A stretch of DNA of 64,000 nucleotides from an uncultured Candidatus Saccharibacteria bacterium (GCA_964449245.1 CAYUXY010000001.1:66838-130837), one strand, 5' to 3'; counted from the first letter of the stretch, positions 1 through 35,427 are shown. Notes: generated by a model from the letters alone, not told the origin. Made by a program: numbers and translations.

Positions 1-613
1 TTAACCAAGATTTTGTTTTTGCAAATTCCATAGGGTTGTTATTTTTTTGAGCAGAAGCCGTAACCTCGATTATTTTTTGATTCGAAATGTTTGAGGCGGA
101 CGAATTTAATGAAATTGTATTACTACCGCTTTTTTTGTCGTTATTGATTTGCCAAAAAAAAGATATATCTTTTAACGATGAAATATTAAAAAAGTAAGGT
201 ATTGCCGTGATTGTACTTTCATTTCCGGATGGTATGGTGTTCCCCGGAAACGGTAATTCTATTATTATTGTCTGTTGGCCAACAGGGATGATAATACTTT
301 CTTTTAATTCAGATGAATTTTGAGATATTGAGACCGACAATATATGGAAATCGCCCTTGCTTTTTTGAACATTAAACGTGGCATTTTGCATTCCCGTGCC
401 ACTCGCTAAATATTTATTATCAAGTTTCCATGATATAAGCGATTTTGATATATCTTGTATTTTGCCGTTTTCTACAAAGGATACGCTTGCCTCTACTGGA
501 CTAAACGGTGAAGCGGCGGCCTTACCCGTAAAATCAGCCGGGAAAAAATTAATAGCTCTCCACGAGAGAATAATATCGCCTTGTTTAGTTGATTGTGCAT
601 ATGACGTAGACAT
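1..613 (-). CDS. hypothetical secreted/surface protein; 5'-partial at window edge, N/S/T-rich
   Basis: Minus-strand reading frame runs from ATG (complement of 611-613) to the window edge without a stop, as I translated it. Its composition resembles the other secreted hypotheticals here. The plus-strand ORF 378-674 looks like antisense junk. Confidence 0.35.
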   Translation of the reverse strand, partial: MSTSYAQSTKQGDIILSWRAINFFPADFTGKAAASPFSPVEASVSFVENGKIQDISKSLISWKLDNKYLASGTGMQNATFNVQKSKGDFHILSVSISQNSSELKESIIIPVGQQTIIIELPFPGNTIPSGNESTITAIPYFFNISSLKDISFFWQINNDKKSGSNTISLNSSASNISNQKIIEVTASAQKNNNPMEFAKTKSWL

Positions 614-676
614 TGCCGTCAAACACAAAACTACAGAAAATATAAATAATATTCGAAAATACTTCATTAAATAAAA

Positions 677-1138
677 TTATACACCTTTTCTCGCAACTTT
701 TTTTGCCATTGATACAACTTTTTTACTGATCTTTTGGGCCGAGTCGGAATCATTTTGGGAATCAGACGCTAACTGCGCTATTTTAGGATGATTGTGTATG
801 TAGGCGTCTATCCAAAAATTTATCAATAATGTCGGGAAAAAAGGAACCGTATTCATTAAGAGCTTCTGCAATATTTTTTTTGTTTGCATAGCGTTTTTGC
901 TTTCCTTACTACTTTCCATCCATTTTTCCATTGCTATTGTCGCGAAACCTTGAAAAATAGGCGTGATTGCAACGCCAACTCCCGTAAGATCAAGAACCGC
1001 GCATGTTGTATCGGCACCTAAGAGTAGAAAACTAAAAACGATAATTTCAGACTCTGTAACTTTATTAATATTTTCATCCCCATCAACCTTCCCCGTATTA
1101 TCTTCCGTTATTTCGTCGGTGCCTATATTTGCATCCAT
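677..1138 (-). CDS. hypothetical protein (T4SS-like cluster member)
   Basis: ORF of 153 aa lying 8 nt upstream of the VirB4-like gene on the same strand. No motif recognised. Confidence 0.45.
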   Translation of the reverse strand: MDANIGTDEITEDNTGKVDGDENINKVTESEIIVFSFLLLGADTTCAVLDLTGVGVAITPIFQGFATIAMEKWMESSKESKNAMQTKKILQKLLMNTVPFFPTLLINFWIDAYIHNHPKIAQLASDSQNDSDSAQKISKKVVSMAKKVARKGV

Positions 1139-1146
1139 GATATTTA

Positions 1147-2898
1147 TTAACGATTACGCAATCCTTTAATTGCAAGCATCTGTTCCGGATCGGTCGTGAT
1201 AATTTGATCCTCCGTATAAGATGGGATTATCTTAATTGCAATATGTTTTAAACCGGCAAAAAAGAGGCCCTCCCCTACGCCACACTCAACCAAAAACGCT
1301 TTCTCGCCCTCCGTGAGATTAAATGTCGCGCCGACCGACTCTATACTTGTCGTGGACTGCTTTAAAAGAATTTGCATAGAAGAATTGGATATTATTGGTT
1401 TCCCATAATTGGATTTTAAAAAGTCATCTATATCTTGCGTGATGCAAATAACGCCAAGATAATATTTGCGAGCTCGCTTTACGAGTCCAAAAAGGAAAGA
1501 CGCGCTATCTTCGTTTTTCATCATAAGCCACGCCTCGTCTACTACGAGAACACGTTGCCTTAATTCAGAACGAATGAGATTCCAAACAAAGTTCAGAATA
1601 ATATACATTGCTATAGGTCGAAGCTCTTCTTCGAGGTCTCTTATTGAAAAAACAATAAGTCTGTTTTTTATATCTACATTAGTCGGGACATTCGTAAATC
1701 CGGCGTAAGATCCACGAGTGAATTTTTCGAGTCTTTTCGCCATCATTTCACCTCCATTTGTATTTTCAAGAACGACCTGCAAATCTTCCAAGAGCGGAGG
1801 ATTTAGATTTTCCATAGTTCCAAAATTCTCGGCGGTTATGTCTCTCGATGCATATGTTTCAATTATTACTCTATCTAATATTGCGTCTTCTTCCGGCGTA
1901 ATACCCTTTAACATTATTTTTAATAATCCCGTGAGATTCAAAACGTGGGACTTAAAGACGTCTGCCGGATCGTCGCCTTCCGGAATAATTGGAATATCAA
2001 ACGGATTAATATGATTTTCTGATGTGAGGGATATTTTAAAGTAGCTTCCTCCTATAGCATCCGCTAAATTTTTATATTCATTTTCGGGGTCTATAACTAT
2101 GATATTTGTCCCGATCATAAGAGAGCGTAGTATTTGCAGTTTTGTGGAGTATGATTTTCCGGATCCTGATTTTGCGAAAATGACGGAGTTCGCATTTTCG
2201 AGTGAAAACCTGTCGAAAATAATCAGGCTGTTATTATGCATATTAATGCCGTACAAAATACCTTTCTCCGATGTTAAATCGGGAGAAACAAACGGGAAAA
2301 ACGATGACGCTGGACCGGAGTTTAACTGATTTAAAACCATAAGCTCGTCTCTCGCAATAGGTAGCACGGAATTTAATCCCTCCATTTGTCGGAATAATGC
2401 AGGCTTGATGTAAATTAATTTACTCTCAAGCAAGGACTCAATTTTATTTTTAAGTTTTTCTAGATTAACTAAATCAGTGCTGTATATTGTGATATAAGCT
2501 CCCACCTGAAAAAGCTTTTCTCTTGATTGTTGCAAGGCGTCGCGCAAAGATTCGACATCCTCGTGGGCTGTTTCAAGTATAGGGTCTCTAACTATCCCCT
2601 TTTCTTCTTTCTCGGACATCTCAGCTTCAATTTGCGCAACCTTTTTAGTGAGTTTTCTTAAGGTTGATCCCGTATCCATCGGGTGCATAAAAATGGAAAT
2701 ATCCATCATTTCCGCGAGATTTATAATAGGAGAAAACCATCCACTTGAAACAAAGCGCGGATATGCGGATATGAAAAAAGTTTTTGCATAATAATCCCCA
2801 ATCTTCAAATGATTTGAATCTATGGAGACGCCGGCCGGAGCAAGTATGCTGGGCATATCATTTTCCGGCGGAACCGCGCTGTTTAATGGTTGTTCCAT
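1147..2898 (-). CDS. virB4: VirB4/TrbE/CagE-family type IV secretion ATPase (PrgJ/TraE-like)
   Basis: Walker A FAKSGSGKSYSTK. Downstream motifs RLIVFSIRDLEE, VLVVDEAW and GVICITQDIDDF are typical of VirB4/TraC conjugative ATPases. 583 aa. Confidence 0.8.
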   Translation of the reverse strand: MEQPLNSAVPPENDMPSILAPAGVSIDSNHLKIGDYYAKTFFISAYPRFVSSGWFSPIINLAEMMDISIFMHPMDTGSTLRKLTKKVAQIEAEMSEKEEKGIVRDPILETAHEDVESLRDALQQSREKLFQVGAYITIYSTDLVNLEKLKNKIESLLESKLIYIKPALFRQMEGLNSVLPIARDELMVLNQLNSGPASSFFPFVSPDLTSEKGILYGINMHNNSLIIFDRFSLENANSVIFAKSGSGKSYSTKLQILRSLMIGTNIIVIDPENEYKNLADAIGGSYFKISLTSENHINPFDIPIIPEGDDPADVFKSHVLNLTGLLKIMLKGITPEEDAILDRVIIETYASRDITAENFGTMENLNPPLLEDLQVVLENTNGGEMMAKRLEKFTRGSYAGFTNVPTNVDIKNRLIVFSIRDLEEELRPIAMYIILNFVWNLIRSELRQRVLVVDEAWLMMKNEDSASFLFGLVKRARKYYLGVICITQDIDDFLKSNYGKPIISNSSMQILLKQSTTSIESVGATFNLTEGEKAFLVECGVGEGLFFAGLKHIAIKIIPSYTEDQIITTDPEQMLAIKGLRNR

Positions 2899-2903
2899 AA
2901 AAA

Positions 2904-3551
2904 TTAAAATTTTTGCGTAGGAGAAACACCTTTTTTCTCTATTAATTGCGGATTATACATATTATAAAATAATTCGATAAGTTCCTCGTCTTCTAATGGA
3001 ATTGCGCGCAGGCCCATTTGACCTAAGCCGGACGTAACTTGGTCAACACGATGGCCGAGTTGTTCAATGTTGTCCTGCATTGGTGTTGTTGTAGAGTCGG
3101 ATGTTTTTTTCTGCAAGAAAGAAAAGACATTATTTTTCCCAGATAAGAAAATAGGCTCATATGGCACGACCGTGAAAAATGATTTGGTAACTATATCGTT
3201 TTGTTCGACAAACGAACGTATGAAATTGATGTATTCATCAATTTGTATTTTTAACAACTCATTCGGCTCTTTTTCATATAGGTCAGACATTTGTTTTAAA
3301 TAGGCGTCAATATTCACTTTTCTTGAGTGTATGAAAAATTGGACTGAAAAATCGAGTGTGTTTATAAAATCCTGAAAACCGGAAAGAATTAAATTTTGTT
3401 CGGCGTCCGATTTCAGGTCAAAATTTAACCCCCCGACTATAAGTATTCGGCACATTCCGCCATTTTTTAGAAAAACTACGCCGTCTTTTATTGATTTTAC
3501 GGCTACAAAATCCTGAGATGGTTTAGAAGGCGATTTTGCTGTTTGTTGCAT
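2904..3551 (-). CDS. hypothetical protein, possibly a detached VirB4 N-terminal domain
   Basis: 215-aa ORF overlaps the VirB4-like start by 7 nt. Its size plus the 583 aa of VirB4 roughly matches a full-length VirB4. Confidence 0.5.
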   Translation of the reverse strand: MQQTAKSPSKPSQDFVAVKSIKDGVVFLKNGGMCRILIVGGLNFDLKSDAEQNLILSGFQDFINTLDFSVQFFIHSRKVNIDAYLKQMSDLYEKEPNELLKIQIDEYINFIRSFVEQNDIVTKSFFTVVPYEPIFLSGKNNVFSFLQKKTSDSTTTPMQDNIEQLGHRVDQVTSGLGQMGLRAIPLEDEELIELFYNMYNPQLIEKKGVSPTQKF

Positions 3552-3592
3552 AACAATATTATTGTAGATGATTGCGCTCTGTCTTACTAATA

Positions 3593-4114
3593 CTAACTAT
3601 AATCAACACGTTTCACATCTCTGCTTTCTCCGGTTGAAAATACTGCTTTTTGATAATTTTTGCCTTTAGTGTCGCTATTTACAGTGGTGGAAGATGTTTT
3701 CTTGCCGGTAGACGCGCTAAGCATAATAGATTGTAATTTTTTTTGTATACTCAAAAGACCACGAGATTCTTCTATGGATTTTTCTGCGTCTTCTACTTGG
3801 ACTTTTTGCCATATAAAAAGACGCGGTTTCATTAAGAAAGAAAAAAGGGATTTAATAACCGCAGGCGCATCCTGCCCGTTTATTTTGCCGAAGGCAAAGA
3901 GGACGCCAATAGCTTCAATAAAAAGAGAAAAAATAATCCAAAGGAAAAATTCGAATGTATAGTATGTCAGAAAACACAAAAACGAAGCTCCGGCTATGAA
4001 GAGAAATTGCTGCAACGTTAACGGCCCGACTATCTTGGGCTTTTTTTCTATAAATTGTGGAATTTGAAATGTTGCCACGTTATAACTATAGCTTATTAGA
4101 GAGTATTCTATCAA
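3593..4114 (-). CDS. PrgI-family (VirB3-like) small membrane protein
   Basis: The N-terminal motif KPKIVGPLTLQQFLFIAGASFLCFLTYY is followed by two TM helices. This matches the PrgI/TcpE family pattern (P..I.G.FT.RQ). Confidence 0.55.
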   Translation of the reverse strand: MIEYSLISYSYNVATFQIPQFIEKKPKIVGPLTLQQFLFIAGASFLCFLTYYTFEFFLWIIFSLFIEAIGVLFAFGKINGQDAPAVIKSLFSFLMKPRLFIWQKVQVEDAEKSIEESRGLLSIQKKLQSIMLSASTGKKTSSTTVNSDTKGKNYQKAVFSTGESRDVKRVDYS

Positions 4115-4145
4115 TAAAAAACAATAAACCCGAAAAGTAATAAGC

Positions 4146-5663
4146 TTAATTTCGCAGATTTATTGTGTTTCCGTCAGTTTCCGGTCCGAGAGGCGCGCTT
4201 TTTTCTTCGGTAATTTTATTTTTTTCAACCCCCTTTTTGAAAGGAAAGAAAAATCCGGTGCCGGCGAGGTTGGGATCATTTTTCTGTTCGGTGGTTTTTT
4301 TAAGAGGTTGGTTTCCTTTTTTAACTTCCGTAGGTTGTTGTCTTTCCGCAATAAATTGGGAAATAGACGCCATAGCATTATTTATTTTTTCCCTGTCTTT
4401 GTTTTTATTTGTGATAATCTCGTGATTAATATTTATTTCTCTGGCATCTTTTTTATCTGTCGCAACGTCTTTAATTGGAGCGTTCGGGCGTGCTTGATTA
4501 TCGACAAATAACACATCTTTTTGAAACGGCGCAATGGGAGTTCTGAGTTCGCTATAGTGCACCGCCTTATCTTTTTTCTGTACTGTAGGAAATTCAATTG
4601 TCGCTTTCGTGGGATTTATAGTTTGTTTTTTACTCGCTTTTTTTGAAAACCAGAAGGATTGAGGAAATCCTTTTGATGGAGTTTGCTTGTCTCTGATATT
4701 TGGAGCAGTTTGCTTTTCTGTATGTAAAATAAGCGGCGCAGAATCGGCGCTAATATTTCCTGCATCTTGTTTAATTGAAACTCTTGATGGTGAAGTTGGG
4801 GCTGGTTGACCGAATATCTCGAGCGATATTCCTTCGTTTGGAGTGGTAACTGGCTTTTTTGTGCCCTCGAATATTTCTTTAATTTCCTGCAGGTGTTTCG
4901 AAAGGATTGAATCTTTTATTGATTTGGCAAAAAACTCCGCATCGTTGGAATCAAGCTTTGAAACAGTTTGTATTGTTTCAGGTAGATTATCGATAGAAAT
5001 TATCCCAAGTATTACGGCGCCAACGGTATGCCCTATTCCGCTTACTACATCATCCCCGAACTTTTTACCAGAGCATAAATTATATATTATATTTGCGGTG
5101 TCAAAAGAAAAAAATATTTTTTTAAGGTCTGCAGATAAAAATCCAAGCTGATAAAAAGGGTCTTTATCTTTTTTCTCCGATATTACGCTTGGGGATTCAA
5201 GCAGGTCGTTATTTATAATCTGTGAAGGACTGCTTAGAAAATATATATAAAGAGATGACGCAAATGTTTTAAGTTTAGATATTTTTTCAATCCCAGATTC
5301 TCCCGGTATAGAGTCGCTTATAAGTCCGAAGAAATATTTTGAAATAGATTTTTCGGTTCTTTCAAACACCCTTCCTGCCGACTCTCCGTCGGCGAAGTTT
5401 ACGAAAACTGCGGCAACGAGCGGTAAGAAAGAATCGCGCCACTCGTCTTCTGAAACGACTCCCCTTATAGCCGGCGCGCCTTCTATAATGCCTTTCCAGA
5501 ATATCAAACGAAGGCCGTCATTTGTGAAATATTCAAGTGTGTCTTGTAGGTTGAGCGCCGCGTCCAAAAATTTTTTATTCTGTAATGCCGTCCAAACACT
5601 TTCCTCCCAAATGGGAATCTGGATAATCATCTCTTCTAACGCTGTATTATTTTCTATATCCAT
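4146..5663 (-). CDS. hypothetical protein (505 aa, Lys/Pro/Thr-rich C-terminal half)
   Basis: Long ORF inside the T4SS-like operon. No recognisable catalytic motif and no TM. Confidence 0.5.
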   Translation of the reverse strand: MDIENNTALEEMIIQIPIWEESVWTALQNKKFLDAALNLQDTLEYFTNDGLRLIFWKGIIEGAPAIRGVVSEDEWRDSFLPLVAAVFVNFADGESAGRVFERTEKSISKYFFGLISDSIPGESGIEKISKLKTFASSLYIYFLSSPSQIINNDLLESPSVISEKKDKDPFYQLGFLSADLKKIFFSFDTANIIYNLCSGKKFGDDVVSGIGHTVGAVILGIISIDNLPETIQTVSKLDSNDAEFFAKSIKDSILSKHLQEIKEIFEGTKKPVTTPNEGISLEIFGQPAPTSPSRVSIKQDAGNISADSAPLILHTEKQTAPNIRDKQTPSKGFPQSFWFSKKASKKQTINPTKATIEFPTVQKKDKAVHYSELRTPIAPFQKDVLFVDNQARPNAPIKDVATDKKDAREININHEIITNKNKDREKINNAMASISQFIAERQQPTEVKKGNQPLKKTTEQKNDPNLAGTGFFFPFKKGVEKNKITEEKSAPLGPETDGNTINLRN

Positions 5664-5668
5664 ATTTT

Positions 5669-7714
5669 TTATTTTCCTGCCCTATGTTCAAATTTTCTGC
5701 GGCCTGTCTTTTTATCCTCGATAGTTGCAATATATCTGCGGGCTTTTTTATTTCTGTATGTCGCAATTCCATTTTCTCTTGTCACGATGTTTGCTATATC
5801 AAACGCGGATACCGGTGTAGCTAATAATTGAGCTCTCGCTTGGTCAAGCTGGTTGGTTAATCCATCTATCGTTGCTTGTGATGCATTTCTACTTCTGGCG
5901 CCGTTTAGGTGGCGCTCTATTCTTCCTACTCTTCTGCGCGCGACATCTCTATCTGTTGATTGTTGTAGAAATTCATTAATTGTTCCACCGGCAGCGGCAT
6001 TACCTCCAGCTAATCCGCTACGTACACCCGGTGGAAGATTTGCTACAGCATCCTCAAACATACTTTGTTTATCTTGAACTACAGCCTTACTTTCTATAGC
6101 TCTGTTTTTCCTTTCTTCGGCGGCATTTATAGCAACCTGATCGCCATTGGTTCTAGCGGCCAGAAGAGCTTTATTGGCTCTTGCAATTTCAACATCGGCC
6201 GAGACAAGCTCTTTTGCTATATTTTTTCCTTCTTCTGCGATGTTAGAAACTACAGCAGCTTTGCCTGCGTCGTCTAAATCGCGGTATCGCCCGGCCTGCT
6301 CGTCAATAGATTGTTTACCTAACTCATCTTTTTTCTTTTGAAAATCCGCCTTTGATTTTCCGGAGAATTTTGAAAGTATATTGCCAAGAGCATTGACTCC
6401 GGCGCCTCTCGCAATAGACTGGGACGCTCCGGGACTCAATTCATTTAGCCTATTTGCAAGCCCGGTGCCCCTAAGCCCCGGAATATTATTGAAATTAAAT
6501 CCCTTGTTGCCGGCATTTTGGAGCGCTCGTATCGCTTTTTGACCAGTGTCACTTCTAAGCGGTGCTGTTGCAGCGCGAGTCGCGGCCTCTTTCGATCGTT
6601 GTTGCATCCATTGCTTCCCCTTTCTGACATTGTCAGAGAGCATTTTATGCGCGCCGGCAGCGCCCGTGATAGACATCTGTTGGGCTACAATAAGGCCTCC
6701 AACAAGCAAACCGACTAATATAATCATTCGCACGCCCTGTTGCATAAGTGCCGCGACCATTCCGTTTTTAAAGAATGTGGTCGAGGAAACCGCCGCTGTA
6801 CCGGAGCTGACCTGTCTTATACTTACGAGCGCGAGATAGAAAAAGAAAGAAACGGCTGGAGCGAAAAATACCCACTGCATAAAGGTTTTCCACCATTTAG
6901 TAAACATTCCTTGCGCTGAAGGAATGACCCAGAAAAGCCACGATAGAGGTGCGAGAACGAGTAAAATAGAAAGATATATATATCGGATGAGCATCATAAA
7001 CGCGAATGCGAAGAGTACGAATGTCGCTATAAATATAAATATCACGACAAAAAACAAACTTGTTACTCCTAAAATCGCACTCGTCCCGAATTTTGTTAAT
7101 CCGCCGACCTCTTCTTCTGGGTCAACCGGTTCTGGTTCGGTGGGTTCCGTAAAGAGTGCTTGCGGATCGAAAGCTCCAGAGAGAGTTTGAGTAAATTCCG
7201 TAGACAAAAATCCAGCTCCGGAACTCGAACCGCTTTCTGTAACAGCTTTGAAAAAATATCGCGTGATAATATGAGAAAATCCTATAAGCGTGCCGGCTAT
7301 TGTAAGGCTGAAGTTAACGAGTATCGCGGCCCCGATTAATTTCGGAAGTAATTTTTTCGCGCCATAGCTCTGATATCTGAAAATTGTTGCAAGCGCTATA
7401 ACGATAATGATAAGTACAAAGCCGAGATTGGCGACATCGCGCGTGATTTCCCATCCGATACCAACGATAGCATTTGTCGGGTCGAGTACTTGAAAATTAA
7501 AATTCAAGGCGATGCTCACGAGATATCCCGCGAGGCTGAAGAGCAGAGACCCGATAAATTGCAGAAGATAAAGCACAACATAAACAACTACAGTAACAAC
7601 CATCGGACCTATCAATGCTATTGCATGCGCAGGTTCAGGTATGAAAAAGAAAACTGCGGATACGAGTAACGCTGCTATTAATAGATTCTTCGATTTGAGT
7701 TTTTTATTTTCCAT
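5669..7714 (-). CDS. polytopic membrane protein, VirB6/TrbL-like
   Basis: At least 8 hydrophobic helices sit in the N-terminal 330 aa. A long hydrophilic coiled C-terminal tail follows. Position is next to VirB4/PrgI-like genes. Confidence 0.55.
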   Translation of the reverse strand: MENKKLKSKNLLIAALLVSAVFFFIPEPAHAIALIGPMVVTVVVYVVLYLLQFIGSLLFSLAGYLVSIALNFNFQVLDPTNAIVGIGWEITRDVANLGFVLIIIVIALATIFRYQSYGAKKLLPKLIGAAILVNFSLTIAGTLIGFSHIITRYFFKAVTESGSSSGAGFLSTEFTQTLSGAFDPQALFTEPTEPEPVDPEEEVGGLTKFGTSAILGVTSLFFVVIFIFIATFVLFAFAFMMLIRYIYLSILLVLAPLSWLFWVIPSAQGMFTKWWKTFMQWVFFAPAVSFFFYLALVSIRQVSSGTAAVSSTTFFKNGMVAALMQQGVRMIILVGLLVGGLIVAQQMSITGAAGAHKMLSDNVRKGKQWMQQRSKEAATRAATAPLRSDTGQKAIRALQNAGNKGFNFNNIPGLRGTGLANRLNELSPGASQSIARGAGVNALGNILSKFSGKSKADFQKKKDELGKQSIDEQAGRYRDLDDAGKAAVVSNIAEEGKNIAKELVSADVEIARANKALLAARTNGDQVAINAAEERKNRAIESKAVVQDKQSMFEDAVANLPPGVRSGLAGGNAAAGGTINEFLQQSTDRDVARRRVGRIERHLNGARSRNASQATIDGLTNQLDQARAQLLATPVSAFDIANIVTRENGIATYRNKKARRYIATIEDKKTGRRKFEHRAGK

Positions 7715-9424
7715 TTATTCTCCCATATTGCACCTGTCCCTGTTTTTTTCGGCTACGCTTACAAGCGCCGTCACGTCAGAAAGTGTGCCGTCGATTATGG
7801 CTGTTTCTGTGTTGATGTCGCTCTGTATTGTAAAAAGCATAGGGCTAAGAAGCGATATATCATAAGCTTCTCCCTGTAATTTTGTCACAAGAGTAGATGT
7901 ATCGTCTCTGAGTTTTTTAAGCACTTCTATTTGTTCTGGAATCCACACATCTCGTCTCGATTCAGATTGTATAAGCGTCTGTGTTGCCGAGAATGATTCC
8001 GGATCCATAACATATGAGCTGTAAGCGGAGAGACATTGTGTAAGTCCTCTTATCGCGCCATTTTGCAGGTTTGCATTATCGAGCGCAAGTATTAATTTTT
8101 TATTAGTTGTTATAACCGAATTAAGTGTAGTTGACGCTTGATTAATCAAATTCAAAAAACCACTTGCCTGTTGTCTCATTTGACCTCTTGCTCCAGTTTC
8201 CGCACCCTCTCTTATAGTTTCCCCCTTTACCGCACTGCTGTATGAACTCTTAACATTATTAATTGCAGTTATGCGATCTGTTTCGGATTTTGTTGTGAGT
8301 CCGATTAATCCACTTACCGCGTTTTTCGTCATTCTGTTTATCGCGGCATCTAAAATAGCGCTTGCGTATGCCTCAAGTTCGTCAGCGCTTAGAATATAAT
8401 CAATGTCAGCATTTATAGCTTTCGAAACAGTATCGCCGACCGTTTTGGATGGAGTAACAGCTTTCGATCCTAATGTCTTGTCGCATTCCCAATGCGCGGT
8501 TACGCCCTCGGGTATGTTCGCAGGAAGTGCCGGAGGATCCGTTGGTTTTCGCGCCGGATCAGAAAATTCGTAAATTCGTCCGCCATCGCTTCCCTGAACT
8601 GCCCGTCCAAGCTCATCAAGCAAAACCCATGCGGTACAGACTTCCTGCGGTAAATATCCTCCACCGCCTGCAATTTTAGCTTGGGCTATTTTATCCTGCC
8701 TCTCGGCCTCGTTTATAGTTTCTTCCATCGCAAGTAGATAAATGCCGTGTCGGTTGTTTTCTGGCGCGGCGGCAGATTGTATTCCGATCCACCCGCCATT
8801 TTTAAAGTTGTCTTTAAATGCGGCAATATTACCTACTACATCGTCAAGCGTACACGATGCGGCTTTGTGAAATTTGGGCGGAGCCTGAAGATTTATTTCT
8901 ATTCGGGCTTTTACCGGACTGTCGCAAAAATCACCGAGGCCTATTTCACGGATTGTTTCGCCGACTCCGGCGTTTACCGCGTCATCAAAGAATTCTCCAA
9001 AATTTTCAACGAATTTTGGTTGTGTCCCGTCCTGTATCCATGTGATAGTTTGATCTACGATTTGATCAAGTAATTGTTTTTTTAATACCTCCCGCGCCAT
9101 TCTTACGGCAATCTCTTTTACAGAAAGCAAACATCGTTCTATGGAAGATTTTTTAACCTCCTTCTGTGTCTCTGAATCGTCGACCGGAACCTTGCCCACC
9201 CCAAGTCCAACGGCGCTTTTAGCCGAATCAAGTGCGCCATCTATTACACCCATAATTTCATCTCCTGCAATCATTTTTATAAACCCACCTACGCAGGCGG
9301 ATGCAAGTTCAGTAACAATTTGAGCCTCCGCTTTTTTGGTATTTATAGGCAAAACAACTCCCATAGCAATCGTGGATAATATGAGAATGTAGGTCGTTAA
9401 TTTTTTTATATTTTTTTGATTCAT
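7715..9424 (-). CDS. secreted hypothetical protein (569 aa)
   Basis: N-terminal signal peptide (LILSTIAMGVVLPINTKKAEA). Stop abuts the VirB6-like start and the start overlaps the next ORF by 4 nt. Confidence 0.55.
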   Translation of the reverse strand: MNQKNIKKLTTYILILSTIAMGVVLPINTKKAEAQIVTELASACVGGFIKMIAGDEIMGVIDGALDSAKSAVGLGVGKVPVDDSETQKEVKKSSIERCLLSVKEIAVRMAREVLKKQLLDQIVDQTITWIQDGTQPKFVENFGEFFDDAVNAGVGETIREIGLGDFCDSPVKARIEINLQAPPKFHKAASCTLDDVVGNIAAFKDNFKNGGWIGIQSAAAPENNRHGIYLLAMEETINEAERQDKIAQAKIAGGGGYLPQEVCTAWVLLDELGRAVQGSDGGRIYEFSDPARKPTDPPALPANIPEGVTAHWECDKTLGSKAVTPSKTVGDTVSKAINADIDYILSADELEAYASAILDAAINRMTKNAVSGLIGLTTKSETDRITAINNVKSSYSSAVKGETIREGAETGARGQMRQQASGFLNLINQASTTLNSVITTNKKLILALDNANLQNGAIRGLTQCLSAYSSYVMDPESFSATQTLIQSESRRDVWIPEQIEVLKKLRDDTSTLVTKLQGEAYDISLLSPMLFTIQSDINTETAIIDGTLSDVTALVSVAEKNRDRCNMGE

Positions 9425-10251
9425 TTTATTGTTGAATCGAGTTTTTCTTTAAGAAGTCTCGCAATCGTTTCCTCGTCGTTATTTAATTCGTTCAAAGTAT
9501 CAATTGCGGCAAGCGCCATAATTGGATCTGTTCCGATATTTAAAACGGCTTTTGCTATGGCAAGTTTTTTCTGCTGATAATTCAGGAGCGATAAATGAAA
9601 ACTTTTCCATGAGGACGGCGTTGGTATTGCAAGAAGTGACGTAATAAGTGAATTGATGCCATCGGAATATTCCGTGAGAAATGAAGGATCGTTATTTTGT
9701 ACAAGTTGATAGACGGCTCGCGTAATGTCCGCGTCAGTTTCCGAAGAAATATTTGCATTTGCGGAACGTATGGCGGCAAGATATTCAATCACCGCTTTTT
9801 CTGACGAATCGTCAATCTGCCTTATGTCACTTTCTTTTGTAGCTTCTATTTGGATACCTTTTCCTATCGCCTCTTCGATGATTGTTTCGATTGTCGCGCC
9901 GGAAGGTATGGTAACCATTTTTTCTCCATTTACATTTAACGGCCCATCCGGATTTTTTTGTACAAGCGTCAATGCATATTGGTTAAGAAATGTCTGCGTG
10001 AGGTTAGTCTCGGGCTGACCGCTATTATTCGAAACTTCCTGAGCGTCTTTCTGATAATCTATAGATGATTTTACATTGTTTTCAAGCCCGACATTCAATG
10101 CAAATCCGCCATTTCCGTGTTTTGGAGCAATGATTAAATATGATGCAAATACGCCCACAATAATGATGGCAATTGCTATTTTTTTTCTTTTAAATAGGTG
10201 CATATTGTGATACGCGGAAAAAACACTTACTCGAATATTTGTGCGTCGCAA
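9421..10251 (-). CDS. bitopic membrane protein (VirB8-like topology, speculative)
   Basis: Single N-terminal TM (IAIAIIIVGVFASYLIIAP) followed by a ~240-aa extracytoplasmic domain. Overlaps the upstream gene by 4 nt. Confidence 0.45.
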   Translation of the reverse strand: MRRTNIRVSVFSAYHNMHLFKRKKIAIAIIIVGVFASYLIIAPKHGNGGFALNVGLENNVKSSIDYQKDAQEVSNNSGQPETNLTQTFLNQYALTLVQKNPDGPLNVNGEKMVTIPSGATIETIIEEAIGKGIQIEATKESDIRQIDDSSEKAVIEYLAAIRSANANISSETDADITRAVYQLVQNNDPSFLTEYSDGINSLITSLLAIPTPSSWKSFHLSLLNYQQKKLAIAKAVLNIGTDPIMALAAIDTLNELNNDEETIARLLKEKLDSTIK

Positions 10252-10398
10252 ACCGCGATTGATTTTGTTTTATTATACAACATTATTAACCTTTTTATAT
10301 AATCATCGCGCGCAATTATATTCGACAAATGTCTTTAGAAACAAAAATATATCACAGTTTTCATTTTGTGATTCAATAATCAACAATATGACAGGCAT

Positions 10399-10782
10399 TT
10401 ATTGTATTGATGGAAGAGAAACCCCGAACATTTTTATTGGAAATGCCATAACGGGTATTGGGGCCCCCGGTGGAGGCACGGGAATCCAGCATACAGGCAC
10501 CATAATTGGAGAATAAAACCCTATTATCCAAGATTTGGGAAAGATTGACTTAAAAAGATAGCGTTGCGTCGCCGGTACCACTGCGTATGGCCCCGTGGGA
10601 GACGCGCCCGTTGGAATTAAGGTTATGGGGCCTTCACCCGGGCAAACCGTAGGAGGGGCGTATGCGGTCACCACTTTTCCAGCGAACGGGAGAAATATTG
10701 CCTCTGCTCTATCTAAGTGTACAAAATAAACAGTTAAGATGATTGAAATAATTGCAATCGTTTTTATAAGGGGAGCCTTCAT
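10399..10782 (-). CDS. small secreted Pro-rich protein
   Basis: Signal peptide followed by a PVPPPGAPIPV tract. Overlaps rsmA by 4 nt. Confidence 0.4.
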   Translation of the reverse strand: MKAPLIKTIAIISIILTVYFVHLDRAEAIFLPFAGKVVTAYAPPTVCPGEGPITLIPTGASPTGPYAVVPATQRYLFKSIFPKSWIIGFYSPIMVPVCWIPVPPPGAPIPVMAFPIKMFGVSLPSIQ

Positions 10783-11564
10783 ACGCTGTCATTATATAGT
10801 ATGTACGTCATTTTGATAATGTTTTGTACGGAGAAATCCTGCGGACGGGCATTTTCGGGCATATTAATTGATTTCAAAAGCTGGTATGCGAGGTCTTTGT
10901 TAAAATTTTCAGAAATATTATTTATAGCCATTTTTCTCGGATGGGCAAAAAGCGTTTTTGCCATTTCAAAATATTTTTGAGGTATGCAATCGCATTTCTT
11001 TTGTATAGATATTAATGCCGAATCCACTTTGGGCGGTGGCGAAAATTCATTTTTTTTAATAGTGCGCAGAATTTTTACATCTCCCCATGCCTGTACGCAG
11101 GCGGCGAGCAGATTCATTTTCGGCTCCGTGCTCGACATTCTAACGGCCACTTCTTTTTGAATTACAAGATGGACGGTGTCCGGAATCCGTCCGGCTGTTC
11201 CGATGACGCGCAATAGATGTCCCGTAATATAATAAGGAATGTTACCTACGATGATTAATTTTCCTGTGCGTTCTATTGCATCACCCAGATACTTTTGAAG
11301 ATAAGCAATTGCATCATCGTGTATTATTTTAATATTTTTGTCGGAGTATTTTTCAGACAGTTTTTTAAATAATTCAATATCTCTTTCGATAAGTATAAGG
11401 GACAAATTTTCGTTTTTCGCTCTTTCATATAAAAATTTTGTAAGCTCTCCATGCCCCGGACCTATTTCAATGACAGTATCGCCGGAAGTGGCAAAGAAAG
11501 ACGAAGATATTTCTCTTAATATCTCCTGATTTTTTAAAAAATGTTGGCCGAGCTTTTGTCTCAT
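10779..11564 (-). CDS. rsmA: 16S rRNA (adenine1518/1519-N6)-dimethyltransferase
   Basis: Carries the KsgA signature LGQHFL and the SAM motif IEIGPGHGELT. Confidence 0.9.
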   Translation of the reverse strand: MRQKLGQHFLKNQEILREISSSFFATSGDTVIEIGPGHGELTKFLYERAKNENLSLILIERDIELFKKLSEKYSDKNIKIIHDDAIAYLQKYLGDAIERTGKLIIVGNIPYYITGHLLRVIGTAGRIPDTVHLVIQKEVAVRMSSTEPKMNLLAACVQAWGDVKILRTIKKNEFSPPPKVDSALISIQKKCDCIPQKYFEMAKTLFAHPRKMAINNISENFNKDLAYQLLKSINMPENARPQDFSVQNIIKMTYILYNDSV

Positions 11565-11575
11565 ATTATTTATTT

Positions 11576-13111
11576 TTATTCCTCAACTTTCATTCTGTAA
11601 TGAAATGCCTCTGCAATATGATTTTTATTGATTTTTTCACACCCATCCAAATCTGCAATTGTACGCGCAATTTTAAGAATACGATAGTAACCACGCGGAG
11701 AAACAAAAGATTTTTCAAGTGCTTTTTTCAAGAAAGATTCAGCATCGTTATCGAATATGCAAAACAATTCCGTTTCTTTGGAATTCATTTCTGAGTTCGT
11801 ATCGAGCAGATGTTCATTTTTGGAAAACCTGATCTTTTGCACTTCCCTTGCGAGCGATATCTTTTTTTCAAGCATTTTTTTGCCTTGCGGTTGTTCGGAA
11901 TTGCGCAGTTCGTCTATGGAAATTCTTGGCACATGGATTTGAATATCCATTCTGTCCAATAATGGCCCTGATATTTTTTTCTGATATCGCAATATTTCGT
12001 TTGCTGTGCACGTACACTCTTTCGACTGATCTTCAAAATATCCACATGGGCAAGGGTTCATTGTTCCTACAAGAGTAAATCTTGCCGGAAAAGTTATCGA
12101 ATTTTTTGCTCTCGCAATCCGTATCAGTCCGTCTTCGAGCGGTTGCCTAAGACTTTCGAGCACGTCGCGATGAAATTCCGGCATTTCATCCAAAAATAGA
12201 ATACCCTTGTGGGCAAGGCTGACTTCACCCGGCTTTGGATTTGTCCCGCCACCTATAACGGCAACAGCCGATGCCGTGTGATGAGGAGATCTAAACGGTC
12301 TCGATAGAATCTGTGCGTTTGAAATGAGTCCGGCGGCGCTGTATATTCTTGCAACATCGATCATCTCGTTTTTCGACAGCGGTGGCAACAAAGAGACGAG
12401 AGCATTGGCGAGCATCGTTTTTCCTGTTCCCGGAGGACCGGACATCATTAAATTGTGTCCCCCTGCTGCGGCAATCGCGAGGGCTCTCTTTGCATTTTCT
12501 TGCCCCTTTATATCAGAAAGCGATGGGCCAAAAGTTGGATTATTGACCGAATTATCTTCATCGGCAACAAATGGCGATATTTTTGATCTGCTTTCAAGAT
12601 GCATTATCGCATCGCGTAGCGATCGTGTTGGATAAATATTTATGCCTTGCACCATCGACGCTTCGTACGCATTTTCGACCGGAACAAAAAGCTCGTCTAT
12701 CCCATTTTGTTTGCAAAAAAGCGCTATGTTTAACGCGCCGGAAACGGGACGCAAATTCCCATTTAAAGAAAGTTCGCCGACAAACATTTTTTTATACGGA
12801 TCAAATTCTGACATTTGTTTGCTTGCCAATATATAGGCGAGGGCTATTGGAAGATCAAACCTTGTACCTTCTTTTTTAATGTTTGCCGGAGCGAGATTGA
12901 TGGTAATTCTTTTATTTTCTCTTGTTGGCGGACGGACGTCCGAATTTTTAAGTGCCGAATTAACTCTTTCTTTTGCCTCGCTTATGGCCTTATCGGCTAA
13001 GCCAACAATGTTAAAAGAATGAAGGCCGACATTCAGGTCGGCCTCAATTTCCACCAATTCCGCATCAATTCCCACTACTTCCGCAGAAAATACCTTTGCA
13101 ACTGCACTCAT
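11576..13111 (-). CDS. comM: YifB/ComM family Mg-chelatase-like AAA+ ATPase
   Basis: N-terminal Lon-like domain (GIDAELVEIEADL) is followed by Walker A MSGPPGTGKTMLA. The C-terminal stretch is the ChlI-like region. Confidence 0.85.
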   Translation of the reverse strand: MSAVAKVFSAEVVGIDAELVEIEADLNVGLHSFNIVGLADKAISEAKERVNSALKNSDVRPPTRENKRITINLAPANIKKEGTRFDLPIALAYILASKQMSEFDPYKKMFVGELSLNGNLRPVSGALNIALFCKQNGIDELFVPVENAYEASMVQGINIYPTRSLRDAIMHLESRSKISPFVADEDNSVNNPTFGPSLSDIKGQENAKRALAIAAAGGHNLMMSGPPGTGKTMLANALVSLLPPLSKNEMIDVARIYSAAGLISNAQILSRPFRSPHHTASAVAVIGGGTNPKPGEVSLAHKGILFLDEMPEFHRDVLESLRQPLEDGLIRIARAKNSITFPARFTLVGTMNPCPCGYFEDQSKECTCTANEILRYQKKISGPLLDRMDIQIHVPRISIDELRNSEQPQGKKMLEKKISLAREVQKIRFSKNEHLLDTNSEMNSKETELFCIFDNDAESFLKKALEKSFVSPRGYYRILKIARTIADLDGCEKINKNHIAEAFHYRMKVEE

Positions 13112-13118
13112 CGCAAAA

Positions 13119-13487
13119 TTATCCTTTTTTACAATTTTTACAAAACTGGGATTCGGGGCTTATATCAAAAATTTCAGGTTCTATTTCTTTTCCGCATTCT
13201 ATACATATTCCATATGATCCGTCTTCTATCAATTCAAGCGCTCGCACGATTCTCTGCAGTTTATTATCAAAAGCATCTTCAAGTCCTTTTTCGCGGACAA
13301 ACTCTTCCGTTTCGTCAGCCTCTTCGTCGAGTCCATCAATATCATCGCCAAAGTCTGAAGATTTTTTTAATTCCGAAATTCTCGTGGTCATTTCATCGCG
13401 CTCTTTTTCAAGAAGAGCTTTCCATTTATTTAATTGTTCTTTTGAATATGGCATATATTTAATATCCGAGTCTTTTTGCTGCCTCAT
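13119..13487 (-). CDS. DksA/TraR C4-type zinc-finger protein
   Basis: C-terminal motif CIECGKEIEPEIF...CKNCK with an acidic coiled-coil N-terminal region. Confidence 0.7.
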   Translation of the reverse strand: MRQQKDSDIKYMPYSKEQLNKWKALLEKERDEMTTRISELKKSSDFGDDIDGLDEEADETEEFVREKGLEDAFDNKLQRIVRALELIEDGSYGICIECGKEIEPEIFDISPESQFCKNCKKG

Positions 13488-14583
13488 TTGACCCGTCTAT
13501 ATTAGAGCCTATCAAGAGATATTTATCAAACCAAGCATATCCAAAAACTGCTCCAGTGTTTGAAAAACGAACCAACGAGGCGGGCTTTCCTGCGATTTTT
13601 CCATCTTCCCATGCTCCAATTGTTCCCGGATCGGACAAAAATGCATTGATTAAGTCAGGGCTTGACTGTAAAGTAGCCATCTCATTTTGCATAGCTGATA
13701 TATCTCCCGTATCTTTGAATTTTGCAATAAACCCGAGCCATGTTCCGGCGGTATTGGTATACGCGAATATTGTTCCATCGCTCTCGAATTTATTTGTAAT
13801 TTCGTTTGTGAAGAATGACGGGAAGAAGGAATTAAGTATGTAAGAAAATGCCATCGGCTTGTTTGAGTTTGTTTTAAATACAACTTCTTTGAATACCGGC
13901 AGAGACGTTGATGTAAATGTAAGCGCGGATTTCATATCCGCATAGCTGAATCCCGGAAGAGGAACATCAAAAACTAAGTCTGCCGGAGATTGAAGGAGTG
14001 ATGAGTGAATTTCGAGCGTTGAGCCAATCGGCGGTTCGATTACTTCAGGCACCGTTTCGATCGGTTCGTTATTGACCGGTACGATTTCATTATTAAGCTC
14101 TTGGTTTATGTCGGCCGGGCTTTCTTCTGAGAGCATCGGCAAGACAAAGAAATATCCAATAGCAAGAATGCCGGCAATGATAATAATGGCGAGTATCCAC
14201 CCAAAAGCGCTTTTTTTCTTCTTCGCCGGCTTTGAACCTTCTCCCCATTCGGGAGTTTGCGGAGTAGATTTCGCGGTCACGGGCGGTATTTTTGGAATGT
14301 TTGTGTTTGGAGTTGATGAAACAGCGTTTGTTGTTTCAAACCCGTCGTTTATATTTTGTGGCGAAAAAGACGGCCCACCCGCATCTACGCGATTGTTATT
14401 GATGCCGGTCGTCGACGGATTGTATGCGTGAGGCATATTCCCGCCAGTTTCTTGCATAGACGCGATGTCGGAAGACATGGTTCTAACGTCTATTTTTTCT
14501 GTCGGCTGTTTTGCGAGAGGGACTTCTCCCTCCCCATCCCCTATTGCAGGGGGAAAATTTTGCTCTTCGTTCATTAATCCCAA
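13459..14583 (-). CDS. membrane-anchored hypothetical protein
   Basis: Internal TM (GWILAIIIIAGILAIGYFFVLP) preceded by a K-rich stretch. The C-terminal domain is extracytoplasmic. The start may be the MNEEQ Met at 14574. Confidence 0.5.
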   Translation of the reverse strand: MGLMNEEQNFPPAIGDGEGEVPLAKQPTEKIDVRTMSSDIASMQETGGNMPHAYNPSTTGINNNRVDAGGPSFSPQNINDGFETTNAVSSTPNTNIPKIPPVTAKSTPQTPEWGEGSKPAKKKKSAFGWILAIIIIAGILAIGYFFVLPMLSEESPADINQELNNEIVPVNNEPIETVPEVIEPPIGSTLEIHSSLLQSPADLVFDVPLPGFSYADMKSALTFTSTSLPVFKEVVFKTNSNKPMAFSYILNSFFPSFFTNEITNKFESDGTIFAYTNTAGTWLGFIAKFKDTGDISAMQNEMATLQSSPDLINAFLSDPGTIGAWEDGKIAGKPASLVRFSNTGAVFGYAWFDKYLLIGSNIDGSNEAAKRLGY

Positions 14584-14621
14584 TTATACACTATTTGGTT
14601 TTATGAACCAACGAATTAGTG

Positions 14622-16667: not shown

Positions 16668-16676
16668 ATATTTATT

Positions 16677-17246: not shown

Positions 17247-17318
17247 ATTTTAAATTTATTGTCTAAATAAAAACTTTTACTTCCCGCGCTTTTGGGGGAA
17301 GTAAAATTTGAAATACTG

Positions 17319-17579
17319 TTATAATTCAAGCTTTTTGACCAGCGCATTATATTTTTTCTCATCATTTTTCTCGAGATATTGGAGAAACCTTCTCCGTTTT
17401 CCAACCATCATGAGAAGTCCGCGTCTCGAGTGATGATCTTTCGGATTTTTCTTCAAATGACCGGCTAAAACCTTGATTTGTTTTGTCAGAAGGGCGATTT
17501 GCACCGATGCGGAGCCCGTATCGGTATCGTGTTTCTTAAAATCCTTTATCGCCGTCTGTTTTTTCTGTTTCGAAAGCAT
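17319..17579 (-). CDS. rpsO: 30S ribosomal protein S15
   Basis: 86 aa with the S15 motifs GSASVQIALLT and HSRRGLLMMVGKRRR. Confidence 0.9.
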   Translation of the reverse strand: MLSKQKKQTAIKDFKKHDTDTGSASVQIALLTKQIKVLAGHLKKNPKDHHSRRGLLMMVGKRRRFLQYLEKNDEKKYNALVKKLEL

Positions 17580-18913: not shown

Positions 18914-19231
18914 TTATGCAAGTGCAAATTTTACTAACTCAATGATTGATTTCGCAAGTATTGCGACAGCAACCGCAATAACAGTTCCAAACAGTTGCTG
19001 TCTCGCAGTTTTCACCCTCGCTTCATCACCTCCGCTAAAAAGAAAATTATATGCGGAAAGGATGATAAATATAACTGCTAGAGCGAGAAGTATGCCGTAC
19101 ATCCAATTGCCTATTTTATCCATCAACTCCAATACCTTTGTTGGCGTGTTAATGGAGCTTTCTGCTTGGGCAATATAAGGTAAAATTAATAGTCCTATAA
19201 TTGTCCAAAAATTAGTGAAGACTTTTTTCAT
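18914..19231 (-). CDS. VirB2/TrbC-like pilin candidate (paralog 1)
   Basis: Signal peptide (..YIAQA|ES) followed by TM helix, short charged loop SGGDEARVKTARQQ and second TM helix. 105 aa. Confidence 0.55.
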   Translation of the reverse strand: MKKVFTNFWTIIGLLILPYIAQAESSINTPTKVLELMDKIGNWMYGILLALAVIFIILSAYNFLFSGGDEARVKTARQQLFGTVIAVAVAILAKSIIELVKFALA

Positions 19232-19240
19232 AGCCCAATT

Positions 19241-19594
19241 TTATCTAACTATGGAACTAATGACAATTACGATACCTTGCGCAAGAAGGCCAATTGCGAC
19301 TGCGACAATCGCGTATATCAAATAATTTTTTGCTTTTGTAACAGACTTCTCTTCCCCGCCTGATGTGAGGTAGTAGAACGCTGCCACAATTAAGAATATT
19401 ACGGCAAGAGCCAATAAAATTCCTAACATGTATTTTGCAATCAATTGAACTCTCGTCATTAATGAGCTGTAGTTTGTAATGTCAGACTCTAGGGTCGGTT
19501 CGGTGCCACTAAATGGATCGGTAATTTGCCCGATTGCAAATGCAGGAGCAAGAAGTATTGCTGCGAGTATTCCTGCTGTAATAATTTTTTTCAT
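19241..19594 (-). CDS. VirB2/TrbC-like pilin candidate (paralog 2)
   Basis: Same architecture. The motif MLGILLALAVIFLIV...TSGGEEKSVTKAKN is shared with paralog 1. Confidence 0.55.
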   Translation of the reverse strand: MKKIITAGILAAILLAPAFAIGQITDPFSGTEPTLESDITNYSSLMTRVQLIAKYMLGILLALAVIFLIVAAFYYLTSGGEEKSVTKAKNYLIYAIVAVAIGLLAQGIVIVISSIVR

Positions 19595-19643
19595 TTTTAA
19601 TAATTAATATAATACGACCTTTTCTTTTTGTGACGCATCGGAA

Positions 19644-19973
19644 TTATTCAAGAACTCCTTCAATAATGCCAACGATGCCCCATCCGATAAAAATTATACC
19701 ATAGCCCAAAGCGGCGTACAAAATGGTATTTTTGCCCGTCGTAAATTTTTTTGGGTCGCCTTGAGCGGTCATTATCTGAAATGCTCCGATTATAATCATT
19801 ATGGTTGCTATCGGCGCGCCGGCAGCTATGAGCCAGCTTATAATAGTCTGAATAAGCTCGAAAACATCGCCGGAGTTCAACGGATTTTGGAGTTCTATTG
19901 CTGCGCCTCTTGCGACAAACGGAACAGCCGTTAATGTGACACAAAGCGCCGTAACGCGTTTAAAAAATTTCAT
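19644..19973 (-). CDS. VirB2/TrbC-like pilin candidate (paralog 3)
   Basis: Signal peptide followed by TM, loop TAQGDPKKFTTGKN and second TM. 109 aa. Confidence 0.5.
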   Translation of the reverse strand: MKFFKRVTALCVTLTAVPFVARGAAIELQNPLNSGDVFELIQTIISWLIAAGAPIATIMIIIGAFQIMTAQGDPKKFTTGKNTILYAALGYGIIFIGWGIVGIIEGVLE

Positions 19974-20009
19974 ATAAATATTATACCAATTTTTACTTGA
20001 TAATGAATA

Positions 20010-20492
20010 TTATTCGCACTCTATCCTATTCCATATCCGCAAATCCCTCGTTTCGCCAGTTGTCGTACGGAAGCTCGAATTCGCGATAAGTTTAACGATC
20101 GTATTTATCATGAGCCATGATGCAAGTCCGATAGCGAGGCCGACCGCGGCGTTTGTCATAAAAGCGCGGGCGGTTTTCAGTCTCGATTCGGATCCGCCGG
20201 AAGTCATCATAATTATTGCCCCTATGATTATAAATATTACCGCAACTGGGATTGCGACTTGAAAAAGAATGGCAATCGCGTTTTGAACCACTATAAGCGC
20301 GTGGCAAAATGTGCAGGCTCCCGAAACGTTGCACGTAGACGTTGAAGAATAAAGCAGAGTTCCGCTTGTAAATGAGTTCGTCGTTTCCGTGCCTTCCCAG
20401 AGATTGAAAGAAAGCGCACTTGTCGTAAATGGCAATGCAAAAAATATAAAAGCTACGACAATCAAAGCCGTTTTCTTAAAAAATTTGTTCAT
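20010..20492 (-). CDS. VirB2/TrbC-like pilin candidate (paralog 4, with Cys-rich insert)
   Basis: Signal peptide, then Cys-rich segment CNVSGACTFC, TM, loop TSGGSESRLKTARA and second TM. 160 aa. Overlaps the SBP gene stop by 17 nt. Confidence 0.5.
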   Translation of the reverse strand: MNKFFKKTALIVVAFIFFALPFTTSALSFNLWEGTETTNSFTSGTLLYSSTSTCNVSGACTFCHALIVVQNAIAILFQVAIPVAVIFIIIGAIIMMTSGGSESRLKTARAFMTNAAVGLAIGLASWLMINTIVKLIANSSFRTTTGETRDLRIWNRIECE

Positions 20493-35369: not shown

Positions 35370-35427
35370 TTTTTATAAATATTAAAAACGACTATTTTAA
35401 TGTCGATCGGCAAGAAAAGAATCTTTG

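Follow-up and report, generated by a model that had tools for sequence, protein, structure and literature searches.

Does a gene cluster built like a conjugation machine belong to an element that carries DNA between cells, or does it serve the bacterium in whose genome it lies? This question is raised by a 64,000-nucleotide stretch from an uncultured Candidatus Saccharibacteria bacterium (GCA_964449245.1, CAYUXY010000001.1:66838-130837), the left end of which holds a candidate type IV secretion system (T4SS). We call the whole 64-kb stretch the window; it lies within a contig recorded as 142 kb, and we extended it to the left with L001, a 6.5-kb Logan contig identical to the stretch. The locus almost certainly encodes a T4SS of the Patescibacteria clade. 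We consider it likely, with less assurance, that this is a vertically inherited chromosomal system, derived from the conjugation machinery of monoderm bacteria (MPF-FATA), that moves macromolecules at the interface with a host. A cytoplasmic-membrane core (VirB3, a split VirB4 and VirB6) and pilins are encoded, and lineage-specific secreted, bitopic and cytoplasmic proteins are co-transcribed or syntenic with that core. Systems of this kind were described in 2023 and 2025, and the locus is an ordinary new example that introduces no new principle.

The first-pass annotation of this DNA, made from the sequence alone, had described ten co-directional, tightly packed and overlapping minus-strand genes at positions 1-10782, and our listing of open reading frames (ORFs) bears this out. 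Spacers of 0-41 nt or overlaps of 4 nt join neighboring genes, with a 147-nt gap at 10252-10398 as the sole exception, and in order of transcription the genes encode proteins of 127, 276, 569, 681, 505, 173, 215, 583, 153 and 225 amino acids (aa). The first of them shares 4 nt with rsmA (10779-11564), upstream of which lies comM (11576-13111). The GC content of the cluster, 37-44%, is similar to that of the remaining window, and a promoter scan returned 36 sites where 36.3 were expected by chance. The cluster does not end at position 1. What had been called a partial 5' gene at the window edge is the promoter-distal gene of the cluster, cut at its 3' end and lacking only its last three codons; L001 holds the full copy. 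The suggestion to look upstream of position 1 could be followed with L001, which shows one more gene after it, for a bitopic protein of at least 328 aa, and relatives carry one or two further cluster genes at this end. The extent first assigned to the cluster is therefore right for the ten genes and too narrow for the system, since it omits both these genes and an array of VirB2-like pilins elsewhere in the window.

The ATPase, the membrane core and the pilins

The 583-aa protein contains the sequence FAKSGSGKS, and its Walker motifs are intact. It scores 368.6 bits against the NCBIfam model NF045971, "VirB4-like conjugal transfer ATPase, CD1110 family" (cutoff 325), and matches Pfam P-loop_TraG (5.5e-28) as well as AAA_10 and DUF87; its second-best NCBIfam VirB4 model is that of Mbov_0397 from the integrative and conjugative element (ICE) of Mycoplasma (2.8e-90). 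The protein is thus a VirB4/TrbE-family ATPase, as first proposed, and we ruled out a HerA/FtsK-type enzyme; the genuine FtsK of the window is encoded elsewhere, at 40486-42579. Alignment with PrgJ of pCF10 covers PrgJ residues 226-772 (26% identity over 558 residues, E 9e-46), and since it begins only at residue 226, the N-terminal domain of VirB4 is missing from the 583-aa protein. The 215-aa protein, previously counted among the unknowns, matches precisely such N-terminal regions, in the VirB4 models NF045975 (6.6e-11), NF045971 and TIGR00929. It also matches the NCBIfam TrsD/TraD family (E 5.5e-9, at 36 bits far under the family cutoff of 200) and has a precomputed Pfam match to PF26593, TraC-like; its gene stops 5 nt ahead of virB4. 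The TrsD-like protein supplies the VirB4 N-terminal domain, and VirB4 is a two-gene ATPase. Of 80 related loci, 72 have a separate TrsD-like ORF ahead of virB4, indicating that the split is not a lesion.

More than 8000 homologues of this VirB4 were found, the best 120 of them at 73-84% identity, and the named ones among these 120 all come from Patescibacteria. Identity is 64-82% in relatives that have the gene order in common and 46-50% in Saccharimonadia; against 72,556 plasmids, the best matches reach 29-34.5%, and those at the top of the list are all from Firmicutes or Actinobacteria. By these comparisons the protein appears to group with the VirB4s of Patescibacteria and apart from those of mobile elements.

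The 173-aa protein, in which KPKIVGPLTLQQFLF is located, had been assigned to the PrgI family. Its own score against PF12666 (25.4 bits, E 2e-5) falls 1.6 bits under the cutoff of 27, and all 23 orthologues tested match the same family (best E 1.9e-15), which upholds the assignment. It has two hydrophobic segments within residues 32-74, and its place upstream of trsD-virB4 is conserved. The 681-aa protein has seven hydrophobic segments followed by a hydrophilic, coiled-coil-like C-terminal tail of ~300 aa. Direct hidden Markov model matches in Pfam and NCBIfam are weak; the protein has a precomputed database match to PF19590, TrbL_3, and two homologues (P0150 and P0152; 43-44% identity) score above the Pfam cutoff for TrbL. 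Residues 1-400, modeled with AlphaFold2 on an alignment of 113 sequences, reached a predicted local distance difference test score (pLDDT) of 86.1 and a predicted template modeling score of 0.77. In a Foldseek search of 350,542 PDB chains with this model, seven of the nine best matches were TrwI/VirB6 chains of R388 (E 2e-3 to 4e-2, probability 1.00, target-normalized TM score 0.41-0.53). The earlier description as VirB6/TrbL-like with a long C-terminal tail thus agrees with three lines of evidence, and the modeled fold gives structural support to a predicted VirB6. Searches of PDB sequences with profiles of this family and of the 569-, 225- and ~400-aa families returned coiled-coil noise or nothing. 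Neither the VirB6-like family (against PrgH of pCF10 and TrwI of R388) nor the PrgI-like family (against PrgI of pCF10) gave a significant hhalign result, the templates in these and all our other hhalign comparisons being single sequences and probably too weak.

The pilin array, overlooked at first, lies ~8 kb from the cluster. Three of its four genes score above the cutoff (26.6 bits) of PF18895, T4SS_pilin, at 38.7, 32.3 and 42.3 bits, and the fourth reaches 21 bits (E 3.5e-4). The products are 22-37% identical to the first of them and have in common a signal peptide, two transmembrane (TM) helices and an SGG(D/E) loop; they also match, weakly and below cutoff, the NCBIfam Mbov_0395 pilin-like family of the Mycoplasma ICE. 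In two relatives (L005 and L084), a pilin-domain protein is encoded at the end of the cluster itself.

Chromosomal setting and the role of the machine

We compared the locus with its relatives and found the order comM-rsmA-127-276-569-VirB6-505-PrgI-TrsD-VirB4-153-225-~400 (numbers being lengths in aa) repeated in Paceibacteria, so that the synteny check proposed earlier shows a conserved order there. In the two long contigs L083 and L084, the cluster is followed by jag-yidC-rnpA, dnaA and dnaN, with dnaA ~5.5 kb beyond; this position is taken from the relatives, and in the genome analyzed here dnaA would fall outside the window. Saccharimonadia loci have VirB4, TrsD, PrgI, VirB6 and adjoining pilin arrays in common. 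No relaxase or coupling protein occurs among the window ORFs of at least 400 aa, all of which were identified (FtsK, PNPase, GyrA, FtsH, aminoacyl-tRNA synthetases and others), in keeping with the first-pass annotation; the sole FtsK-like ATPase has the alpha and gamma domains of a genuine FtsK. Because synteny with housekeeping genes is conserved and every ORF of that size was scanned, the reading of the cluster as chromosomal, next to rsmA-comM, and not as an ICE, with no accompanying relaxase or coupling protein, is supported. The only tyrosine recombinase in the window is Xer-type. We considered this integrase, which lies beside tRNA-Leu and the pilin array, as a marker of an island and rejected it, as it is flanked by rpsO and pnp. 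Pfam and NCBIfam searches of the cluster proteins revealed no VirB1-like hydrolase domain and no VirB7-, VirB9- or VirB10-like protein.

A gene for a hydrolase with LysM and Peptidase_M23 domains lies on the opposite strand between comM and rsmA in two close relatives (L083:1-854 and L084:389-1399). It is missing in the window, where comM and rsmA are 11 nt apart. A part for this protein as a VirB1 substitute in those relatives is plausible.

This setting corresponds to a published class. Quinonero-Coronel et al. 2025 (PMC12102498) report that Patescibacteria VirB4s form a monophyletic clade within MPF-FATA, found in 2,407 of 3,035 assemblies, with TrsD as its commonest partner (2,272 homologues), accompanied by PrgI/VirB3, VirB6 and arrays of VirB2-like pilins, and located near ksgA, rnpA, dnaA and dnaN. 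VirB8, VirB1 and relaxases are rare: the same survey counts 109 relaxases over 3,035 Patescibacteria genomes, only 15 of them near virB4, and finds that VirB4 exchange between classes is rare. In Southlakia, transposon sequencing showed that epibiotic growth requires both the T4SS and its pilins, and the system has no recognizable coupling protein or relaxase (Wang et al. 2023, PMC10633639). A 2025 review (PMC12857230) regards it as the first essential T4SS and as the only one in monoderms that probably assembles pili of the conjugative type. The class, found in ~80% of the genomes of the ultra-small Patescibacteria (CPR), is of general interest, as the first T4SS shown to be essential to its bearer and the only monoderm T4SS with VirB2-type pilins. 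The locus described here offers a clean example from Paceibacteria, in which VirB4 is encoded by two genes, VirB6 has structural support and the conserved, wholly unannotated partners form a defined set.

What the machine does was proposed, in the first-pass annotation, as host interaction or DNA uptake, by inference. On our analysis, a non-conjugative role at the host interface is somewhat favored, a judgment whose chief ground is genetic work in Southlakia (class Saccharimonadia), a distant relative. In such a role, VirB4 hexamers anchored by VirB3 would power the building of both a VirB6-based channel and, through the monoderm envelope, a pilus or conduit of VirB2 type. Fast-evolving surface proteins and the pilin paralogues would touch the host bacterium, and macromolecules, whether proteins or nucleic acids, would pass in one direction or the other between epibiont and host, with no DNA conjugation involved.

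Several points weigh against this account. Essentiality is known only from a Saccharimonadia species that has different accessory genes and a VirB4 class ~47-50% identical to the one described here. The pilin array is tied to the cluster, 8 kb away, by family membership only, and the window has no identified VirB1-like hydrolase or VirB8-like protein. Our view covers 64 kb of the 142-kb contig and ~1 kb past its left edge, so a relaxase or coupling protein may lie elsewhere, and many VirD4-like genes are far from virB4 in Patescibacteria genomes (PMC12102498).

The machine might instead work as an importer, like ComB of H. pylori or the archaeal Ced system, bringing in DNA or RNA of the host or the environment for recombination (with ComM and RecA) or as a supply of nucleotides. 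The gene comM is directly upstream, here and in relatives, and PNPase (14622-16667) and recA are encoded within the window, where the coupling protein and relaxase that DNA export needs were not found among the ORFs scanned. In class ABY1, comF, recG and radA adjoin the T4SS (PMC12102498); nucleotide synthesis is lacking in these bacteria (PMC10633639); and a preprint (10.64898/2026.06.21.733656) describes feeding on host RNA, with possible T4SS pili at the interface, and reports that PNPase and VirB4 are each monophyletic in the phylum. We nevertheless judge an importer unlikely. Both comM and rsmA are ordinary housekeeping neighbors, so that adjacency is weak evidence; the match to CedB is marginal (43.7 bits against an NCBIfam cutoff of 700; CedD, 22 bits against 600); and RNA import is known for no T4SS. 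Deletion of comEC in Southlakia ended competence and not viability, while the T4SS is still essential (PMC12857230), indicating that the essential role does not run via ComEC.

We regard as very unlikely a conjugative element (an ICE, or a plasmid since domesticated) that is still able to transfer DNA by means of a relaxase and a coupling protein encoded outside the window. All recognizable parts do derive from monoderm conjugation systems, coupling-protein genes may be far from virB4 in a phylum where VirD4-like genes are common (PMC12102498), and the contig was examined only in part. Yet the order with comM and rsmA (and, in relatives, rnpA, dnaA and dnaN) is kept over VirB4 identities of 64-82%, the window has no integrase other than the Xer-type recombinase and no compositional anomaly, and the scarcity of relaxases and of VirB4 exchange between classes in the published survey points the same way. 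A decaying remnant, in which VirB4 is broken in two, VirB1, VirB8 and VirD4 are lost and no working machine is left, would explain why VirB4 occupies two ORFs and why several canonical components were not detected, but we find it hardly credible. The two-gene VirB4 is the norm of the family, as the 72 loci and the 2,272 TrsD homologues (PMC12102498) attest, and occurs in the functional Trs system of pGO1 as well; VirB4, with intact Walker motifs and identities of up to 84%, is one of the region's best-conserved proteins; none of the ten ORFs is broken, and all are tightly coupled; and a homologous system is essential in Southlakia (PMC10633639).

Lineage-specific partners of the core

Around the core of the chromosomal T4SS stand proteins of 127, 276, 569, 505, 153, 225 and ~400 aa, for which we found no relatives in Pfam, NCBIfam or PDB sequences. 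The earlier listing of the 505-aa, 153-aa and window-edge proteins as unknowns accordingly stands, the 215-aa protein being the member that leaves that list. BLASTP matches of the 569-, 505-, 276-, 225- and ~400-aa proteins come mainly from the closest Paceibacteria-type loci, and none come from the Saccharimonadia loci. The accessory proteins are 21-53% identical in relatives where VirB4 is 64-82% identical, which argues for a strongly constrained motor and fast-evolving surface parts.

The 569-aa protein represents a family of at least 4,900 clusters at 50% identity (E<=1e-3) with a core of the form LKKxLLDxxVDQTIxWI...NN and near-invariant Cys residues. Fold prediction, which the first-pass annotation had recommended, was of limited help here: the AlphaFold2 model, from 13 sequences, is poor (pLDDT 57.6), and Foldseek found no match to it at E<=0.001. 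TraC/VirB5 (1r8i) appeared at rank 10 (E 0.18), amid generic helical bundles, and we count it as a lead rather than as evidence for a VirB5; hhalign of the family against PrgK of pCF10 and TrwJ of R388 was not significant. Among ten long members scanned, one has an fn3 domain, and one orthologue of 1010 aa has a weak galactose-binding-like domain, which suggests that the family is located at the surface.

The 276-aa protein has a TM segment at residues 25-43 and orthologues of 250-270 aa in five loci. Its bitopic topology is as first described; the likeness to VirB8 goes no further than topology, as the family gave no match to any known family and a negative hhalign result against PrgL, the VirB8-like protein of pCF10. 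The 225-aa and ~400-aa proteins are further candidates for a VirB8-like part. The 505-aa protein has no signal peptide and has orthologues in seven loci, at 23-38% identity. Its tail (residues ~300-505) carries the conserved motifs APLxLHxE, KGFxxxFxFFK, VKIExP, HYSEL and, at the C terminus, GNxxxLK, which look like docking peptides. The 225-aa protein has an N-terminal hydrophobic segment (residues 6-24) and same-position orthologues in nine loci, at 21-53% identity. For the 153-aa protein, same-position orthologues of 127-161 aa occur in L005, L006 and L008, with genes for 128-129 aa in L083 and L084; for the 127-aa protein, orthologues occur in L002 and L003, and L083 and L084 have unannotated genes for 172-175 aa at that place.

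Could these Paceibacteria-specific genes make up an envelope module, not described before, that stands in for VirB1, VirB5, VirB8 and adhesins in a machine that imports host nucleic acids? The proposal covers two secreted proteins (569 and 225 aa), two bitopic ones (276 and ~400 aa) and the cytoplasmic protein of 505 aa, and would make the 569-aa protein a VirB5-analogous stalk or pilus tip, because it is encoded immediately upstream of virB6, like virB5 in diderm systems. We consider such a module unlikely. The very large family of the 569-aa protein merits structural and genetic study of the connection between epibiont and host.

Known counterparts and the remaining window

The closest counterpart is the published Patescibacteria-clade T4SS, including that of Southlakia epibionticum (SEML1_0006-0019). 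Both have an MPF-FATA-type VirB4 with an adjoining TrsD-like gene, PrgI/VirB3, VirB6, a divergent array of VirB2-like pilins and no nearby relaxase or coupling protein, and both sit on the chromosome by ksgA (rsmA), with rnpA, dnaA and dnaN near in relatives. The system described here differs in being Paceibacteria-type, in having its pilins 8 kb from virB4 and not inside the cluster, and in having no peptidase or lysozyme gene adjoining virB4. Staphylococcal pGO1/pSK41 Trs, a subclass of MPF-FATA, likewise places a small TrsD just upstream of VirB4, with a VirB3-like gene before it (TrsC-TrsD-TrsE); unlike our locus, pGO1 is a plasmid that conjugates and encodes a relaxase, a coupling protein and the hydrolase TrsG. 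It lacks VirB2-like pilins and belongs to a subclass in which no VirB6 homologue has been recognized.

Enterococcal pCF10 (Prg/Pcf) has the same order of VirB6-like, VirB3-like and VirB4 genes, and its VirB4 is of the same CD1110 family. In contrast, its VirB4 is full-length, and it encodes the PrgK hydrolase, VirB8-like PrgL, the PcfC coupling protein, the PcfG relaxase and the adhesins PrgA, PrgB and PrgC, none of which we detected here. The Mycoplasma ICE resembles the locus through the Mbov_0397 VirB4 model, matched by the 583-aa (2.8e-90) and 215-aa (6.6e-11) proteins, and through the Mbov_0395 pilins, all under cutoffs; its genes lie on an excising ICE, however, and its VirB4 is a single polypeptide. 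Trw of R388 (MPF-T) provides, in TrwI, the best match to the fold modeled for the 681-aa protein (residues 1-400), and there too a gene for a secreted protein immediately precedes, trwJ/virB5 before trwI/virB6. Identity to TrwI is 14-17%, however, with no significant profile match; the diderm VirB7/VirB9/VirB10 core and VirB11 of that system are absent here, and the 569-aa protein has no detectable similarity to VirB5.

Table. Positions of the cluster genes, their housekeeping neighbors and the pilin array in the window
Feature	Position	Strand	Basis or remark
225-aa beta-rich protein, secreted or signal-anchored	2..667	-	Last cluster gene in window; full gene L001:4868-5545
153-aa small membrane protein, directly downstream of virB4	677..1138	-	ORF; hydrophobic segment 31-49
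VirB4 ATPase, C-terminal part, 583 aa	1147..2898	-	NF045971; Walker A AKSGSGKS, Walker B VLVVDE
TrsD-like 215-aa protein, equivalent of the detached VirB4 N-terminal domain	2904..3551	-	NCBIfam matches; PF26593
PrgI/VirB3-like two-TM protein, 173-aa ORF	3593..4114	-	PF12666; probable start 4078 (161 aa, L001 gene call)
505-aa protein, helical N-terminal domain and long low-complexity tail	4146..5663	-	ORF; orthologue alignment
VirB6/TrbL-like polytopic membrane protein, 681 aa, "extended VirB6"	5669..7714	-	TrbL_3; AlphaFold2 and Foldseek
569-aa secreted protein of a large unannotated family, immediately upstream of virB6	7715..9424	-	Signal-peptide-like N terminus
Bitopic 276-aa protein, one N-terminal TM segment and extracytoplasmic domain	9421..10251	-	Relatives suggest ATG at 10203 (~260 aa)
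127-aa Pro-rich secreted protein, first cluster gene	10399..10782	-	Signal-like N terminus; start overlaps rsmA stop by 4 nt
rsmA/ksgA and comM, housekeeping neighbors, not T4SS parts	10779..13111	-	Pfam RrnaAD 1.1e-41; Mg_chelatase/ChlI 2.4e-94
Four VirB2-like T4SS pilin paralogues (105, 117, 109 and 160 aa)	18914..20492	-	PF18895

Between the cluster and the pilins, the region 13119-17579 encodes a DksA/YteA-like zinc-finger protein, a 374-aa unannotated membrane protein, PNPase and an NYN-domain RNase-like protein, together with a putative rpsO, recognized by its appearance in the sequence. We considered a replication origin within the window and rejected it: where GC skew changes sign, near 25 kb, the coding strand switches too, so that skew tracks gene strand; DnaA boxes are not enriched in the window; and dnaA of the relatives lies beyond the other end of the cluster.

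Two further observations concern tRNA genes. A perfect 179-bp tandem repeat (29169-29564; 2.2 copies, 100% identical) starts inside the 3' end of tRNA-Phe (29113-29185), and each unit closes with a copy of that tRNA 3' end. The unit folds strongly (z = -7.5) and has no match in Rfam; possible explanations are an att-like duplication, a structured RNA and an assembly artifact. At 35427-35499 lies a tRNA-Ile with the anticodon UAU, which is unusual, as bacteria usually read AUA by a lysidine-modified CAU anticodon. Farther along, the gene at 55750-57624 encodes a protein of 624 aa that has repeat domains of the DUF11 and DUF7619 types; by its position unrelated to the T4SS, it is probably a surface protein.

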